Positions 23,029 to 29,460 of a DNA stretch of 64,000 nt are shown here, in pieces. The notes below the pieces were generated by a model. The model did not search any database. It was not told the origin of the DNA and saw nothing but the letters and a program-made list of their open reading frames with translations. The stretch's first letter is position 1. Each line of letters opens with the position of its first letter. The position numbers were made by a program, and so were the translations under genes. Source of the stretch: a virus; IMG/VR virus record IMGVR_UViG_3300023210_000011, positions 1-64,000 of that record; one strand, 5' to 3'.

Positions 23029-23211
23029 TGAACCCTCCGTGAATTTCTCGAGAGACTACAGTACACCGCGTACTGCTCTCCTCTCTACTTATATTATGCC
23101 CGGAACTGACCCGTATTTTACGTTTCTGCATGATAGGATATGCAAGTTAAAGAGGAAGCCCAGCTTTTGCCTGGTACCTCTACCGCCAGACGAGAGCGGC
23201 ACTTTTCGACG

Positions 23212-23649
23212 TCAGCCTTCCAGCTCGAATCCGCCGACCAAGTCGGAGACCCAACCCCACTGCACGTCTTCGACGCCGTGGAACCCCAGAATCCGCGTCA
23301 CTTTCGTGCGCTTCCTGAAGTTGGACCCGCCTTTCAGCGACTCTGGATTGAACTCCACCCCGTGCTGCGTGCAGATCTCCGCCCAGGTGTCAAACCGGGC
23401 AGCGAACTTCACGCAGCTCGAGTGGCCGAGACCTTTCGGAATCGTCCACCCGAGCACACTCGGGACTGCTTGGCCGAGAAGAGCCCAGAGGCAGAACCAG
23501 ACGTCATTCCACTCCTCGCGGATGTGGGGGACGTCCAGGTCCCTGACTGCCTCGGCGAGTTCATGGAACTCCCCAAAACAGAACCTCCAGGTCATCGGAC
23601 CTGCCAGAAGATGACGCCTCAGGTCTGAGACCTTGAAGTGTTTCTTCAT
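23212..23649 (-). CDS. hypothetical protein, probably leaderless mRNA
   Basis: ORF track; ATG lies about 7 nt downstream of the -10-like element at 23657; no RBS. Confidence 0.65.
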   Translation of the reverse strand: MKKHFKVSDLRRHLLAGPMTWRFCFGEFHELAEAVRDLDVPHIREEWNDVWFCLWALLGQAVPSVLGWTIPKGLGHSSCVKFAARFDTWAEICTQHGVEFNPESLKGGSNFRKRTKVTRILGFHGVEDVQWGWVSDLVGGFELEG

Positions 23650-23720: not shown

Positions 23721-25160
23721 TCACGCCATCGCTCCGTCGATCAGCTCCTGAACGCTCCACTTGGGGTGCGCGTCCTGGAGCTCGAGACACTTCTCCAAGA
23801 TCGGGCCAAAGTGCCATCCCGGCTTCATCTTCCGTGCAATCAGGTCCCGGCCCTGCACCTTCGGATCCGGAGGAGCGTTCTCGAACTCCGCCGCCCGGTC
23901 CAGAACCAACTGGGAGGTCTTGTGGTTCCAGTCGGGACTGCCAGTCTTGAGGGACCGAGTCTTCCAGTCTGCCGAGGTGGCGCATGAATCGCACTGGCAG
24001 ACACTCGCCAGATGCCGCAGAGTGAGGCCGCACGCCCCGAGGCGCCGGTGGAGCCTCGCCCACGCACCGCCCGACGCGTTCCCCTGCATGAGGTTCCACG
24101 GCTGCATGTGCTCACCAACCAAGCACGTGACCTTCTGCCGGAGCTTCTTTCCGCCCCGCTCCCCCGTGAATCGGGAGAGGAATAGATCTGCGGGAGCCCT
24201 CCCCTTCTGGTCGTGTCCCCAGGCGGTCCACAGCCGCTCCTTGGGCGCCTCGTCCCGGGCCACCATCTCCGGAGTGATAGTGGTCAGCGGCTTTCCGATG
24301 TCATGCAGGAAAGCCGCCAGCATGATGACCAGGCGATCCTCCTCGGGCAAGAAGCTCCGGAGCTCAGCCGCCGCATCCAAGGCCAGCAGGCTGTGCACCA
24401 TGACATTGCCCTCTGGGTGGTGATCCGGGCTCTGACCGGTACTCGCCAGCGCCGACAGCTCCGGAGCCATGAACTCCCAGAGTCCGAGGTCGCTGGCCAG
24501 CTGGACCCCGATGCTCGGCTTCTCGGCCTTGAGCATCAGCTTCTCCAGCTCCGCGAAGAGCCGCTCCGGGGGCAGATGCTCCGTCTCCCGCACCATGCTG
24601 CGCATCAGCAGCATGGTGTGTGGGTCCACCGATAGGGCCTTCCGGGGAAGGAGCTGGACGGCCCTCCACACACGAAGGGAGTCCTCCCGGAAGAGGTCGG
24701 GATCCGTTGCCCGGAGAACCCCAAAAGACAGGTCCCGGAGCCCACCCCACTCATCCACAATCTCGCCCGTAGCGATGTCCATCGCCAGGGTGTTGATCGT
24801 GAAGTCGCGACGGCGGGCAGCCTCGCGCACAGACATCGTGGGGTCCACCTCCACCACGAAGTCCTTGTGTCCCTTGCCGACCTTGTTGTCGGTGCGCGGC
24901 ACGTTGATGTCGACGTCCACCCCATCGACGTTCAGCTTGAGGATGCCGAAGGCCCGACCAGCCTCCTTGACGGGATGGTCGGGGAAGAGGGCCGTGATCT
25001 GGTCGAAGTCGAGGCCGAACACCTCGAGATCCCAGTCCTTCGCGGCCCGGTCGCAAAGGAGGTCGATGACAGAGCCACCGACCAGAAGAGCGCGGCCCCC
25101 GCCGCGCTGGATTCGCCGAGCCACCATGTGGACCTCAGCAGGGATTGCGTGGGTGTTCAT
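23721..25160 (-). CDS. cca: class II tRNA nucleotidyltransferase (CCA-adding enzyme) with HD domain
   Basis: LVGGSVIDLL..KDWDLEV, RRRDFTINTL, FREDSLRVWRA, HPEGNVMVHS, AFLHDIGKP; start refined to ATG 25160 after AGGAGG. Confidence 0.92.
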   Translation of the reverse strand: MNTHAIPAEVHMVARRIQRGGGRALLVGGSVIDLLCDRAAKDWDLEVFGLDFDQITALFPDHPVKEAGRAFGILKLNVDGVDVDINVPRTDNKVGKGHKDFVVEVDPTMSVREAARRRDFTINTLAMDIATGEIVDEWGGLRDLSFGVLRATDPDLFREDSLRVWRAVQLLPRKALSVDPHTMLLMRSMVRETEHLPPERLFAELEKLMLKAEKPSIGVQLASDLGLWEFMAPELSALASTGQSPDHHPEGNVMVHSLLALDAAAELRSFLPEEDRLVIMLAAFLHDIGKPLTTITPEMVARDEAPKERLWTAWGHDQKGRAPADLFLSRFTGERGGKKLRQKVTCLVGEHMQPWNLMQGNASGGAWARLHRRLGACGLTLRHLASVCQCDSCATSADWKTRSLKTGSPDWNHKTSQLVLDRAAEFENAPPDPKVQGRDLIARKMKPGWHFGPILEKCLELQDAHPKWSVQELIDGAMA

Positions 25161-25224
25161 GTTCCCTCCTACTCCCTTATGCCGTGTTGTTTCGGCCTTT
25201 TGAGGGCTAAGATTTCGGCATGAT

Positions 25225-25540
25225 GGCGGGCCCCACCCGGGGCCCGCCTGGTCTCTTGGTCTCACACGCCCACGTGGGGCCAAGTGAGCTCGTGGGAGAG
25301 CACAGGACTCCCTTCTTCTACCTCCCGGCAAGCCGCCCAACTGGACAGCCTGCGCACAAAGGGGGCAGGAGTCCTGCGCCGTTACCGTACTACCAGCGAC
25401 CCCTCACCTTCCGGTGAGACAACACGCGCCCCGCGCTTTCGCGCTTAAGGTCCCGCCAAGGGACCAGGGTATCTCCCTTTCGGGGGCACGGTTGAGAGCG
25501 ACGTCACCACTGATGTTGGGCGCCCTCTGGTCACTATGTT
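25225..25540 (-). ncRNA. candidate structured RNA (ORF-poor unit with GNRA hairpins)
   Basis: own promoter motif (25555) and terminal hairpin (25226-25248); several GAAA/GGAA-capped hairpins and a 12-bp long-range helix. Confidence 0.45.
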
Positions 25541-25606
25541 CCTCTCTATACATATTATGCCCGAATACGGGCACTATTTAAGCCAGCGGCCCCGGCCCGC
25601 CCCCAT

Positions 25607-25753
25607 TCAGGGGCGGGCCGGCTTCTTCATCTTCTTTGGCTTGGTGTAGAACACCGGACAGCCCTTCCGACTGCACGCCACCGTCACGATGGTGGCCTTC
25701 TCTCGCTCGATTAGCTCGCCCCCGCAGCGGCTGCACCAATCCACTACCTTCAC
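25607..25753 (-). CDS. small zinc-ribbon protein
   Basis: CSRC...CSRKGC; GTGA coupling. Confidence 0.6.
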   Translation of the reverse strand: MKVVDWCSRCGGELIEREKATIVTVACSRKGCPVFYTKPKKMKKPARP

Positions 25754-26019
25754 GGCGTCCCTCGAAGCGCGGAAAGGAACTCGAGGTACGAGGTCTCGAA
25801 CTCCGGACACGGGACCGGATTCTTTCCCGAGTTCCCGGTCATGACCCGCTCCTGCGGGAGCTTCCACCCGCTGTCCTCAATCTCGACCGTGTCGCAGCGG
25901 TGAACCGTCCACACGCCCCGCCACTCAACCGAGGCCATCCCCGGGACGCCCTCACCAACGGGGACGGGGTCAGGCGGCGTCCCAATCCCAATACACCCAC
26001 ACGGGTACTTGTACAGCAT
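25750..26019 (-). CDS. hypothetical protein (YPCGC)
   Basis: ORF track; AGGAGG RBS; promoter motif at 26044. Confidence 0.65.
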   Translation of the reverse strand: MLYKYPCGCIGIGTPPDPVPVGEGVPGMASVEWRGVWTVHRCDTVEIEDSGWKLPQERVMTGNSGKNPVPCPEFETSYLEFLSALRGTP

Positions 26020-26070
26020 ATGAACCTCCTTGGCTCATACACCTTATGCCCCAATAGAGGTCGGTTTTGG

Positions 26071-26259
26071 CTATGTGGGATCGATGAGCCACAGGGGGCA
26101 CACCACCTCGACTCCCTCTTCGTAGTGCCGCTTCTTGGGGATCCAGACGTAGCCCTCGGGGGTGTCCACCAGGCAGGACTCCTCGGTGCATTGATCGATC
26201 ACACATTCGGGGACTGTGGGCTGCTTGAACGCGAGCAGAACAGCGAGGGCCATGAGCAT
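26071..26259 (-). CDS. small secreted or membrane hypothetical protein
   Basis: hydrophobic N-terminus MLMALAVLLAF. Confidence 0.5.
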   Translation of the reverse strand: MLMALAVLLAFKQPTVPECVIDQCTEESCLVDTPEGYVWIPKKRHYEEGVEVVCPLWLIDPT

Positions 26260-26367
26260 GATAGGGATCCCAGTGGAAGCCCTCTGGTGTAGCACGGCGG
26301 CTAAAGAGTTGTCCCGCGCCCAGGCGCAGGCGAGCCCCCGAAGGGACCCGCCTGCGCCACACTGTGC

Positions 26368-27183
26368 TCAGGCGAACTTCAGGAACACCGGCCAGACCGT
26401 GTCCCAGCCGAGGCTGGAACGCAGTCCGCCCTCCTTGCGGGGGGCGCCGCCGATGGTGCTGCCGCCGCCCCACCCGTCCTCGATCTCGTTCATGGCAGCC
26501 AGGAAGCCGGGGATGTCCCCGGGTGCGAAGTCCGACCGCTTGCCGACGGTCCAGCCGAAGGTCCCCTCCGGGCCGGGGACCTTCGCCAGCGCCATGATGG
26601 CGCCGGCGGCGTAGGCGGCGGCGAAGTCTCCGCTGACCTCCACCACATTGCCGTTCTTGTCCACGCCGTGCACGGGGCACGGCGGGAACGCGAAGGGCTC
26701 CGGGAGCTGCTCGTCTCCGTGGTCGTACCAGCAGCAGATGTGCTGCTGGTCCTCCCACATCATGTCCCGCGTCTGCGCGACGCGGGGATTCCGCGAGAGA
26801 ATCTTGTGGAGCTTCTCCGGCTTCCGAACCGGCCCGTGGCTGTCCACGAACCCGATGGCCCGGACCAGGTTCCGGACCCGGTCGTCGACCTTGTCCGGGT
26901 TCATCAGCAGCCACAGGCTCAGGCTGCCGTCGGCATCGAGGTCGTTCAAGACGATCTCCATGCCCTCGGGGTTGAACCCGAGGTCGAGGGCGAGCAAGAC
27001 CTGCTCGCAGGTGGAGAGGGTTGCGAAGCGCGAGCACTCCGCGTGGTGGTCGAAGGAGTACGACCGCTTCTCGACGTCGATCTTGGGGCCCCGGCAGGCC
27101 CCGTCGAGGTAGATGGTGCCCGGGGCCATCTCCTCGGGGTTGATGGTGGAACCATAGCGGAAAGTGACGACGGTGTCGCCCAT
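26368..27183 (-). CDS. DHH-superfamily phosphoesterase-like protein
   Basis: YLDG, SFDHH, LNDLDADG (DxD), VDSHG, C-terminal GWGGGSTIGG. Confidence 0.55.
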   Translation of the reverse strand: MGDTVVTFRYGSTINPEEMAPGTIYLDGACRGPKIDVEKRSYSFDHHAECSRFATLSTCEQVLLALDLGFNPEGMEIVLNDLDADGSLSLWLLMNPDKVDDRVRNLVRAIGFVDSHGPVRKPEKLHKILSRNPRVAQTRDMMWEDQQHICCWYDHGDEQLPEPFAFPPCPVHGVDKNGNVVEVSGDFAAAYAAGAIMALAKVPGPEGTFGWTVGKRSDFAPGDIPGFLAAMNEIEDGWGGGSTIGGAPRKEGGLRSSLGWDTVWPVFLKFA

Positions 27184-27310
27184 GTGATGTTCCGAAGCAG
27201 GCAGGGAAAGAACGCACCACTCACGAGCCCGAGGGCCGCCTGCGTGTGGGTGATGCGCGAATCAAGGTGCAGCCAGCCTCAACCCGTAGGGAGGCCAACC
27301 GCGGTATTTG

Positions 27311-27547
27311 CGGTGAGGAGGGGGACTCGAACCCCCCGAGCTCCAAATCACGGTCTCACACAGATCGGTCACGCTCCCCTTCGCCCCTCCCATTGGAGGT
27401 CGGCACGCCCGGCAGGTTGTCCGTCTTCTGCTCCGGCGGTGGCGTGTAGGGTAGACTGGTGCTTAGCAGAAGGGGAAGTTGCTACAGCAGCGCGACTGTG
27501 TGATTCCGATTTGGTGCTCCCCCCCGTATGCTTGGGGTCCTCTCACC
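27311..27547 (-). ncRNA. tRNA-like/tmRNA-shaped structured RNA (~237 nt), CCA not encoded
   Basis: 5' GGTGAG pairs with 3' CTCACC plus discriminator G; D-like arm CCCC-AAGCATAC-GGGG; T arm GGGGG-TTCGAGT-CCCCC; long interrupted helix replaces the anticodon arm. Confidence 0.7.
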
Positions 27548-27735
27548 ATATATGAAGTGTGGTCCGGGTTCCGGAGCCCCGTTGCCCCGTGTTCTCCGGA
27601 ACCCGGCCACACTTGAAATCTTCGAGCTGGTTACTCACCTCTGCTCTACTTACTTTATGCCCCAAACAGGTACGGAATTTAGGGTACGAGCTAAGAAGTG
27701 CGTGATAGGCGCCGCCCTTTCGGGCGACGCCATTC

Positions 27736-27939
27736 TCAGTCCTCTGGAATGGAGACCACGAAGTAGTCTCCCCTCCTGTGGATCTCCAGGTCCAGCTGGA
27801 CCGTCCAGGTCTCCCCGCACTGCGGGCAGGTGACCTCCCCTCTCCATGCGGGATCCCAGATAGACCCGCAGTGCGCTCCCTCTTGCAGGAAGGGGTCCCC
27901 TGTGACGGAGATCTCCTTCTCGCACGAGTCGCACGCCAC
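27736..27939 (-). CDS. small zinc-finger protein
   Basis: CDSC...CPQC; start uncertain. Confidence 0.55.
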   Translation of the reverse strand: MACDSCEKEISVTGDPFLQEGAHCGSIWDPAWRGEVTCPQCGETWTVQLDLEIHRRGDYFVVSIPED

Positions 27940-27977
27940 CGAGTCGATCTCTCGTCCTCGGTAGCGCGCGGGGGAGC

Positions 27978-28121
27978 TCACAGGAACGCCGCCCGAAGGG
28001 CGGCGTCGTGTTGTCCCACCCACCAGGCCCACATGACGAGCATGCTCGTCACGAGGAACCCGGCGGCGTAGAGGGCCGCAAGGTCGGCGGCCCTCTCCAG
28101 CTTCGCTTCTTTGCTACTCAT
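27978..28121 (-). CDS. 47-aa membrane peptide (MSSKEAKLERAADLAALYAAGFLVTSMLVMWAWW...)
   Basis: translated by hand; GAGGTGAG RBS; promoter motif at 28139. Confidence 0.55.
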   Translation of the reverse strand: MSSKEAKLERAADLAALYAAGFLVTSMLVMWAWWVGQHDAALRAAFL

Positions 28122-28175
28122 TCTCACCTCCACCTATATTATGACCTTTTGGGGCCAGAAATAAGGCAGTTGGGC

Positions 28176-28409
28176 CTATGGGACGATCTCGGAGATCTTG
28201 CCGGCCTTCACCAGTCGGTCTCTGATCTGCTTGATCATTTCCCCATCCCTCAAGAACTCCTCCACGAACATGGCGCACAGTCCCGTTGCCGAGAGGGGCG
28301 CGTCCGGAGAGGAAGGCCGCGGGAGGATCATGTCGAGATCCCCGGATTCCCGGAAGATGAGGGCTGCGTCCCCCTCCACCATGGTCATCTGCTGCATGCC
28401 GTCATCCAT
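28176..28409 (-). CDS. hypothetical protein
   Basis: ORF track; coupled. Confidence 0.6.
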   Translation of the reverse strand: MDDGMQQMTMVEGDAALIFRESGDLDMILPRPSSPDAPLSATGLCAMFVEEFLRDGEMIKQIRDRLVKAGKISEIVP

Positions 28410-29004
28410 TCTGGGGCCCCGGGAAGAGGAACCTACGGTGGTAGAAGATCCGCTGGTCGGCAGAATTCACGATCGAGAACGTGTAGCGGGGGGGCCCGTC
28501 GAGGAAGGCGTTCGCCATGACCGCTCCGGTCATGACCTCCGCGAGTGTTCCCGACACGATGACCCTCCGTGTCGCTGTGCAGGAGAAGCGGTAGTAGTAG
28601 CCGGGGACACCCACATCCCCCGGGTAGTCCTTGAGCGAGATCTTGACCTCCCGGAGTGATTGCCGCAGGCCCCCCGCATTCGAGACCACCGTATCCAGGG
28701 GGTCTCGAGGCTTCTCCACCTTCACCGCCTCCTCGTCTTCCTCATCGTCTTCGCCGAAGATTGCGACGTAGAGGTCCGCGATCTGATCGGGGGAGATCTT
28801 AATCGACTTCACTGTACCGGTGGGGAGCACCTCGAAGAGCTCGCTGATGTCCAGGTGGTACTTGATCTCGTCACTCACGTCGATCCGGCCCAGGGCTTCC
28901 TCAGCTTCGATCAGCTGTCGGGAGAGGTCTTCCCGCTGCCTCTCGAGCTCGGCGAGGGCATTCTCGCAGTATCGCTTGGCTTCCAGTGCGTCTTTGAACC
29001 CCAT
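28402..29004 (-). CDS. hypothetical protein with N-terminal coiled coil
   Basis: ORF track 28402..29085; start refined to ATG 29004 after GGAGG. Confidence 0.7.
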   Translation of the reverse strand: MGFKDALEAKRYCENALAELERQREDLSRQLIEAEEALGRIDVSDEIKYHLDISELFEVLPTGTVKSIKISPDQIADLYVAIFGEDDEEDEEAVKVEKPRDPLDTVVSNAGGLRQSLREVKISLKDYPGDVGVPGYYYRFSCTATRRVIVSGTLAEVMTGAVMANAFLDGPPRYTFSIVNSADQRIFYHRRFLFPGPQNG

Positions 29005-29017
29005 GGGGCCTCCAGTG

Positions 29018-29045
29018 AAAAGGCCCCTCCAGAGATGGAGGGGCC
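29018..29045 (-). terminator. intrinsic terminator downstream of tmRNA
   Basis: 10-bp stem GGCCCCTCCA/TGGAGGGGCC followed by TTTT. Confidence 0.75.
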
Positions 29046-29057
29046 TTACGATGAAAG

Positions 29058-29460
29058 TGGTGGACCTGGTGGGAGTCGAACCCACGTCCGCAGCATCATT
29101 CCTCAGTCCGTTCGCTACATCCCCGTACTTGACCCAGCGGGGCGGGTGTCCCAGGTGGCTTCCCCTGGCTCCAGTTGTCCTTCACGCGAGGCTCTAAAGG
29201 CCTCGCCGCATTCCAGCCCGCTGAGCAACTTCCTCTCTCTTGAGCTTGCGAAGTCTCGTTTTACACCTGGTGAAGCTCGACCAGCTTCCTCACCAAGCAC
29301 CGGGGCTCACGGAGTCCCCGGACTTCTCTCACGCGGCCGCGGCCACGGGAGCGAAGTGGTTGTTGTTGTTGGCAATTGTCGTTTGCCTCACCGTTAGGCC
29401 GGTGAGCACGCCGCAGCGCGAACTTTCGTGCAGATACCCCGTCGAAACCGTTTCAGGCCC
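29058..29460 (-). ncRNA. ssrA: tmRNA (transfer-messenger RNA), tag (A)ANNNNHFAPVAAAA
   Basis: 5' GGGCCTGAAACGGTTTCGACGGGG; 3' GACGTGGGTTCGACTCCCACCAGGTCC-A-CCA; G3.U70 alanine identity; tag ORF 29373..29329. Confidence 0.93.

Follow-up and report, generated by a model that had tools for sequence, protein, structure and literature searches.

Why should a bacteriophage that encodes no transfer RNA (tRNA) carry a CCA-adding enzyme of its own? The question is raised by a locus of a marine phage known from the IMG/VR virus record IMGVR_UViG_3300023210_000011, of which the first 64,000 nucleotides, hereafter the window, were analysed. All parts of the locus lie on the minus strand, as does every gene, RNA and signal of the window described below, and they extend from 29.5 to 23.7 kb of the window. 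As the initial annotation had stated, they include a CCA enzyme with an HD domain (gene cca), a DHH-like protein, a transfer-messenger RNA (tmRNA) and structured units free of open reading frames (ORFs), all of which were found at the places it had given. One of the structured units holds a tRNA-shaped RNA, here called RNA-A. CCA-adding enzymes of phages are usually explained by the phage's own tRNAs without encoded CCA; in this case the sole CCA-less tRNA-like gene is RNA-A, and the locus thereby offers a concrete test case for the role of phage Cca enzymes. The reading that we favour, with a probability of roughly 0.4, sees in the locus a series of accessory cassettes, each with its own promoter, whose core is formed by promoter, RNA-A, DHH gene and terminator as one unit, together with the adjoining cca gene.

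The first step in answering the question concerns the genome as a whole. The IMG/VR record comprises 131,435 bp (63% G+C), and a 166,412-bp scaffold of the same phage (loci L115, L122, L123 and L124) allows it to be closed: a stretch of 35,992 bp bridges the two ends of the record, and the genome, which is circular or circularly permuted, thus amounts to about 167.4 kb. Neither the window nor the 131-kb record nor the 36-kb remainder contains a tRNA gene, as judged by ARAGORN and the Rfam tRNA model on the record, the remainder being likewise without tRNA, and the Rfam scan of the genome outside the window matched no family. The initial annotation had seen no ordinary tRNA gene in the window and had allowed that many CCA-less tRNAs elsewhere in the genome might account for cca. 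The former observation holds and extends to the complete genome, and the latter explanation fails on a count of zero. Consequently, tRNAs of the phage do not explain cca, and a complete phage genome with cca yet without a single tRNA gene is a new finding. With regard to the place of this phage among known ones, megablast of a 7-kb region against 50,697 phage records returned no close relative; six near-identical contigs (L002-L007) differ by 0 or 1 mismatch over the 4.4-7 kb that each shares with this region, and four marine metatranscriptome runs contain the tmRNA of the phage.

The cca gene (23721..25160) encodes a protein of 479 amino acids, which sequence profiles assign to the class II CCA-adding enzymes with an HD phosphohydrolase domain. 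Specifically, Pfam recognizes PolyA_pol (PF01743, 1.7e-16, 61.1 bits against a cut-off of 23), PolyA_pol_RNAbd (PF12627, 8.9e-11, 41.8 bits against 22) and, at residues 255-298, the HD domain (PF01966, 6.5e-06, 26.9 bits against 22), and the protein also matches phrog_2244 (4.9e-57). The NCBIfam model 'multifunctional CCA addition/repair protein' is matched at 9e-40, below the model's own cut-off; the CCA models reach 136.7 and 130.3 bits versus 97.3 for the PcnB models, all of them below the curated cut-offs. The translation contains GGSVID, DWDLE, RRRDF and EDSLR, to be compared with GGxVRD/DxD, RRD and EDxxR, which we take to be the catalytic and template motifs of class II enzymes, as well as the HD ligand segments VMVH and LHD. 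The phage enzyme thus has the template motifs of E. coli Cca (NCBIfam PRK10885) and the same head, RNA-binding and HD domains, whereas its 136.7 bits against the PRK10885 cut-off of 451 mark it as a distant member by sequence. In relatives of the phage, cca follows the usual pattern of accompanying CCA-less genes: genome G012 has cca, and all four of its inspected tRNAs lack an encoded CCA, whereas genome G001 (locus L032, positions 138000-157500 of G001) has no cca and encodes the CCA in 13 of the 14 tRNAs that flank its tmRNA. Phage tmRNA and cca genes are already known (Al-Shayeb et al. 2020, PMC7162821; Iyer et al. 2021, PMC7824862). The translation gene sets of huge and jumbo phages described there resemble the present case in that a large phage has its own tmRNA and class II CCA-adding enzyme, with DHH-type phosphodiesterases in some jumbo phages; the difference is that the phage of the window has no tRNA gene and that RNA-A is here the only CCA-less tRNA-like gene, whereas cca accompanies CCA-less tRNAs in the relatives.

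RNA-A (27311..27547, 237 nt) lies within the ORF-free leader of the DHH gene (27650-27184), which folds with a z-score of -4.6. Its 6-bp acceptor stem is formed by 27547-27542 pairing with 27317-27312, and is followed by a 4-bp D-like hairpin, an arm of about 175 nt in the position of the anticodon arm, and a canonical T arm (27337-27319) with the loop UUCGAGU. The discriminator G27311 is followed by CAA instead of CCA. RNA-A is not called as a tRNA by ARAGORN, RF00005 gives no match at E <=10, and its sole tRNA-type match in Rfam is tRNA-Sec with 19.7 bits against a cut-off of 47 (E 3.3). With tmRNA (SsrA, RF00023) RNA-A has in common an acceptor stem and T arm that close a long helix and an inner multi-branch domain; it differs from tmRNA in having U3-A70 rather than G3.U70 and a D stem, and in the lack of a convincing tag frame and of an encoded CCA. 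In addition, a long near-perfect hairpin precedes RNA-A in the leader (27555..27614) and is absent from the related phage locus L142 described below.

RNA-A is also represented in RNA data. Two metatranscriptome runs, from two studies, contain contigs of the RNA-A core (27341-27535 and 27341-27537, with depths of 3.9 and 4.3), so that the CCA-less tRNA mimic proposed in the initial annotation proves to be real and expressed. In these two runs, the only exact-match pieces assembled from the 5.9-kb locus are the tmRNA and the RNA-A core, and RNA-A is like tmRNA in being abundant in RNA data, beside the true tmRNA itself. The pattern of the RNA-A contigs resembles that of the tmRNA contigs and fits a stable, excised RNA. 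Moreover, RNA-A is conserved: locus L142 has a homologue (nhmmer 7e-12), for which an independent minimum-energy fold gives the same architecture. The long arm differs in sequence between the two and keeps its helix; in the alignable half of the two sequences RNAalifold finds six pairs changed on both sides, and the inner domain has single-stranded blocks common to both. By nhmmer, the L142 copy was the only further homologue of RNA-A or of RNA-B, the structured leader of cca, in about 140 loci. RNA-A is, in other words, an expressed and conserved tRNA-shaped RNA of 225-240 nt without a catalogue entry, and the locus adds a candidate new stable RNA beside tmRNA.

Several other identities were considered for RNA-A and set aside. 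A second tmRNA finds no covariance-model or nhmmer similarity, and short frames such as APNRNHTVALL begin too near the 5' end for a tag in a tmRNA architecture and are for this reason treated as chance. The idea of a top half copied from a cellular tRNA, or of an attP-like remnant, was rejected, the exact 25-mer being absent from 185,579 species genomes; a looser pattern found one Nocardioides site, which ARAGORN does not call as a tRNA. A likeness to the acceptor and T arm of tRNA-Ser was not confirmed by this search, and the idea was dropped. Five orphan T-arm matches in L071 belong to another, repeated element of 64 nt. This 5.8-kb contig (L071:1-5940) has identical 125-nt ends, is probably circular, and carries a DHH-like gene and five copies of the 64-nt repeat between ORFs or at ORF starts; each copy combines a T-arm-like hairpin, whose stem changes preserve pairing, with a second GGCGC...GCGCC hairpin. 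As a separate observation on the leaders, a Shine-Dalgarno-like GAGG, a GTG and a short frame of about 33 and about 29 codons follow the two leader promoters (27640-27540 and 25535-25445, respectively), the former frame stopping at the 5' end of RNA-A; these frames could encode leader peptides or be due to chance.

Immediately behind RNA-A lies the DHH gene (26368..27183, 271 amino acids). Its product matches nothing in Pfam, PHROG, NCBIfam or PADLOC, its family profile has no sequence match in the PDB, and Foldseek gives none at E <=0.001. The family comprises at least 474 clusters at 50% identity, with members in large phages and in Patescibacteria genomes. Pfam DHH (PF01368) and DHHA1 (PF02272) are matched by none of 42 members, a single weak DUF6687 match (E 0.0033) being found, and in the ESM Atlas the protein is linked only to other hypothetical clusters and to DUF6687. 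The family alignment (A1) contains the motifs LDG, SFDHH, NDxDAD, VDxHGP and WGGGSTIGGxPR; D45 is invariant, and at least 90% of members retain H46, H47, D83, D85, D114 and G239-G240. The canonical motifs of the superfamily are DxD, D, DHH, D and GGGH; for GGGH the window family reads GGGS, and a sister family (A4) has GGH. The AlphaFold model, with a predicted local distance difference test score (pLDDT) of 95.1, was compared by exhaustive structural alignment (VIA-align), in which PAP phosphatase (8a8k, Z 9.1, 217 residues) and RecJ2 (Z 8.5, in a range of 217-219 residues) come out on top, with further matches to RecJ, NrnA, GdpP and Cdc45. Since only DHH/DHHA1 proteins head this alignment, the description 'DHH-like' holds at the level of the fold, and the model assigns to the window protein a two-domain DHH plus DHHA1 fold.

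In L142 the gene behind RNA-A encodes 291 amino acids and is not an orthologue of the window gene: it belongs to A4, a second uncatalogued family of at least 815 proteins. Profile comparison (hhalign 90.9%, E 1e-6, 227 columns, with motif-for-motif correspondence) identifies A4 as a remote sister of A1. The model of the 291-residue protein (pLDDT 96.5) has only DHH/DHHA1 proteins among its 24 best structural matches, including TM1595 (Z 10.3), NrnA (9.8) and PggH (9.1 over 217 residues). Judging from these models, the slot behind RNA-A is filled by a DHH-fold enzyme in either phage. That two uncatalogued DHH/DHHA1 families share this slot is likewise new, and these two large families thereby gain a first testable genomic context. 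In common with enzymes of the NrnA, GdpP, PggH and RecJ type, the proteins of the locus have the two-domain fold (Z 8.5-10.3) and conserved acidic and His motifs; they differ from these enzymes in their lack of a Pfam DHH/DHHA1 match, their shorter length (271-291 amino acids) and, in the window family, GGGS for GGGH.

DHH-like genes of the window family are also found in other surroundings. In the lineage L042/L043 (L042:4050-6619), the DHH-like gene is flanked by the gene of a head-only nucleotidyltransferase of 246 amino acids, immediately upstream, and by a Metallophos gene, immediately downstream, and in L047:864-4867 a cca-HD gene for 552 amino acids follows 1.5 kb downstream. A locus in a Patescibacteria metagenome-assembled genome (L008:1683-10179) has the DHH-like gene two genes from mCpol and near a DEAD/HA2 helicase of 1323 amino acids, and in L121:6001-9320 a DEAD/HA2 helicase of 671 amino acids comes directly after it. 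In bacterial-type loci (L008, L009 and L119), non-coding gaps of 0.5-1.4 kb often precede the DHH-like gene.

A promoter motif (27655..27681; TAAATT, about 14 nt, GGGGCATAA) precedes the RNA-A/DHH unit and also stands in front of RNA-A in L142, and a GC-rich hairpin (26323..26358) follows the DHH gene. A terminator hairpin (25592-25621) and then a second promoter motif (TAAATA ... GGGCATAAT) introduce the cca unit (25555..25621 in all). The sequence GGNCATAA occurs at 14 sites in the genome, all 14 on the minus strand and most with an upstream TAAAT-like box; nine of the 14 fall between 19.8 and 28.2 kb, including those that precede RNA-A and RNA-B, and neighbouring genes have the motif in front of them as well. 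Further examples of the promoter-like motif (TAAAT, about 14 nt, GGGCATAAT) besides 27655-27681 and 25555-25580 are at 23101 and 22425, and the motif is present in L142 as well. Each unit having its own promoter, the locus is a string of separately promoted cassettes and not an operon.

In L142, whose cca is 76% identical, the order is promoter motif, RNA-A homologue, 291-residue DHH-fold gene, conserved terminator, promoter and, directly next, cca. The 73 nt with the terminator hairpin (about 26299-26371) are 90% identical by blastn in L142, where they stand behind the sister-family gene; both flanks of the DHH slot are conserved between the window and L142, while the gene itself has been exchanged. 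Variation also exists within the phage: the 166,412-bp scaffold corresponds to the whole 167.4-kb genome minus exactly 26287-27301, that is, the DHH gene, the tail of its leader and the terminator, which is consistent with a swappable cassette. Two other contigs begin inside RNA-A, at 27441 and 27355. These observations suggest that the DHH cassette varies between strains; no direct repeats were found flanking it. The synteny that the initial annotation had proposed to test is thus retained in part: RNA-A, a DHH-fold gene and cca stand together in L142, but the tmRNA is reduced there to a stub, and the linkage is mostly lost in distant relatives. It is plausible that a small conserved unit is made up of RNA-A, the DHH gene and cca; the cca leader RNA-B does not belong to it.

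From these elements a working scheme can be drawn. The RNA-A/DHH unit would be transcribed from a phage promoter, as the motif and the RNA contigs suggest. RNA-A would offer a 12-bp minihelix of acceptor and T arm, to be cut at its 5' side by host RNase P and at its 3' side by a nuclease, and the products would be a stable RNA and a separate DHH mRNA. As the CCA of RNA-A is not encoded and tRNAs are lacking in the phage, the phage CCA enzyme would finish the 3' end of RNA-A; it may also maintain this end and, probably, the ends of host tRNAs and of the tmRNA. The DHH enzyme, in turn, may act on RNA 3' trailers or on short RNA or nucleotide products of the same pathway. A more far-reaching version would see in RNA-A a new class of tRNA- or tmRNA-shaped phage RNAs that are excised, CCA-tailed by the phage enzyme and charged by an anticodon-blind host synthetase, and that act on stalled ribosomes or as a decoy or sponge for nucleases or toxins directed at tRNA ends, the DHH enzyme serving as dedicated maturation or turnover nuclease; we regard this version as rather unlikely. 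A certain parallel is provided by RNAC and RNAD, stable small RNAs of unexplained role from the tRNA region of phage T4 (PMC3014915), which, like RNA-A, are phage-encoded and lie in a region of translation RNAs; T4 differs in having tRNA genes where the phage of RNA-A has none.

A number of observations weigh against a conserved RNA-A/DHH/cca unit. Among 95 loci (741 kb) of the window DHH family, a PolyA_pol-type neighbour occurs in two lineages only, about the background density of whole phage records, and 28 other viral loci (324 kb) of the sister family have neither a cca neighbour nor RNA-A. The collinear relative G001 (164.6 kb) has a DHH-like gene yet neither cca nor an RNA-A-like T arm, and G011, whose cca is the nearest in IMG/VR (49% identical), has in 89.5 kb no tRNA and no such orphan T arm. 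Assembled contigs cannot reveal true RNA ends or a non-templated CCA, and the assembly of run X8 lacks the RNA-A core even though no other of the four runs has a deeper tmRNA contig, an absence from which nothing follows, as contigs drop parts. The RNA-A family consists of two known sequences, which makes the covariation evidence thin. In addition, a cassette hot-spot could by itself bring two common accessory genes into one slot. This leads to a possible, albeit somewhat doubtful, explanation, in which the cassettes are independent of one another and have no common pathway: RNA-A would do no more than mark the leader of the DHH mRNA for processing or stability, being cut by host RNase P and 3' nucleases, cca would top up host tRNA and tmRNA ends, and the clustering would reflect a recombination hot-spot. 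The promoter and hairpin that each unit possesses, the exchange of the DHH ORF between conserved flanks, the scaffold missing exactly 26287-27301, the different gene orders in G001, G011, L036-L039 and L142, and the lack of enrichment of nucleotidyltransferase neighbours beside either DHH family all speak for it. On the other hand, the replacement gene is again of the DHH/DHHA1 type, a coincidence that chance would seldom produce, the conserved single-stranded blocks of RNA-A would be superfluous in a mere cutting tag, and the RNA-A core accumulates like tmRNA, whereas the neighbouring mRNA is not seen.

Two further explanations assign the locus to the conflict with host defences. The DHH-fold enzymes might degrade cyclic oligonucleotide or related messengers as counter-defence, with no relation to RNA-A or cca. 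Their structural neighbours indeed include GdpP, PggH, NrnA/Pde2 and the CRISPR-associated NrN, the Patescibacteria genome has a 61% identical homologue near mCpol, and a role against SMODS and type III CRISPR signals has been put forward for DHH phosphodiesterases of jumbo phages (PMC7824862). There is no PADLOC match, however, the mCpol neighbour is found in a single locus, the window family reads GGGS for GGGH, and the fixed position behind RNA-A in two phages is left unexplained; messenger degradation appears quite improbable. The initial annotation had favoured one integrated module of RNA repair and ribosome rescue (tmRNA, RNA-A, DHH protein and Cca with HD domain), which heals RNA ends hit by tRNA-cleaving defences of the host. 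That translation genes counter defences is a published general idea for jumbo phages, whose surveys count CCA enzymes, phosphoesterases and tRNAs among the presumed means of countering an attack on translation (PMC7824862), and defences that cut the 3' tail of tRNAs do exist (Cas12a3, PMC12851939); the parts lie, moreover, within 5.7 kb on one strand, and cca has its HD domain. Such a module is nevertheless just as improbable. The 131-kb record contains neither RtcB (PF01139) nor an Rnl2-type RNA_ligase (PF09414), and the 36-kb remainder, not searched for these, has gene calls without such Pfam labels; nothing in the 131-kb record would therefore seal a cleaved tRNA, which sets this phage apart from RNA repair systems of the T4 Pnkp/Rnl or RtcB type. 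SmpB was not found in the 131-kb record either. The parts are not one operon but have separate promoters, cca neighbours are at background density, L142 retains RNA-A, the DHH gene and cca but only a tmRNA stub, and G001 has tmRNA and a DHH-like gene without cca. Nothing in the analysis connects the locus with anticodon nucleases or another defence, and separately promoted cassettes around an RNA-A/DHH/cca core remain the favoured reading.

The tmRNA itself (29058..29460) is of the one-piece kind. It scores 77.4 bits with Rfam RF00023, above the cut-off of 47, ARAGORN predicts the tag ANNNNHFAPVAAAA, and its tRNA-like domain has the G3.U70 pair, with 5' GGGCCUG pairing with CAGGUCC, and then ACCA, so that the CCA is gene-encoded. 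A hairpin with a U-run follows. Metatranscriptome contigs of four RNA runs, among them 29061-29448, 29070-29442 and 29090-29450, do not quite reach the ends of the gene, from which they stop between a few and about 30 nt away. At the corresponding position, L142:5639-5722 has a tmRNA-like stub of 84 nt (Rfam tmRNA 33.5 bits, E 8e-11), in which acceptor stem, T arm and encoded CCA are retained and 41 nt replace the whole message domain; judging from its sequence, the stub could be left over from a deletion or could still work as a mini-tmRNA. In G001 the tmRNA lies within an array of 14 tRNAs, 12 kb from the DHH-like gene, in a record without cca, and in G011 it is 17 kb from cca. The inclusion of tmRNA in a conserved module does not withstand this comparison: the tmRNA is a separate ribosome-rescue gene and merely a neighbour of RNA-A, the DHH gene and cca.

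RNA-B (25161..25550) is a structured, ORF-free leader of cca of 390 nt, which folds with a z-score of -6.1. It is represented by one metatranscriptome contig (25251-25402) of mRNA-like depth, and is missing from L142 and G011. Between the cca promoter region and the DHH gene are ORFs of 62, 89 and 48 amino acids (25607..26259), supported by gene calls; the 62-residue ORF directly follows the tmRNA in G011, and in three loci from 68-70% relatives the 48-residue ORF immediately precedes the DHH-like gene. Beyond cca lies the gene of a 145-residue protein (23212..23649) without an assigned family. In G001 and L039 this gene immediately precedes the DHH-like gene, and in L142 it stands two genes after cca; the segment EEWNDVW of the protein is reminiscent of MazG-type pyrophosphohydrolases, a resemblance that no Pfam match supports. 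On the other side, upstream of the RNA-A promoter, gene calls and translations give ORFs of 73, 47 and 81 amino acids (27736..28397) without family matches, the last being Cys-rich and resembling a zinc ribbon. An ORF of 200 amino acids (28402..29004), called in near-identical contigs and without a family match, has a 37% identical homologue in L142, where it also adjoins the tmRNA position. Finally, a 182-nt metatranscriptome contig from run X13 matches window positions 28320-28501 with 8 mismatches, an indication that a close relative of the phage is expressed in these waters.

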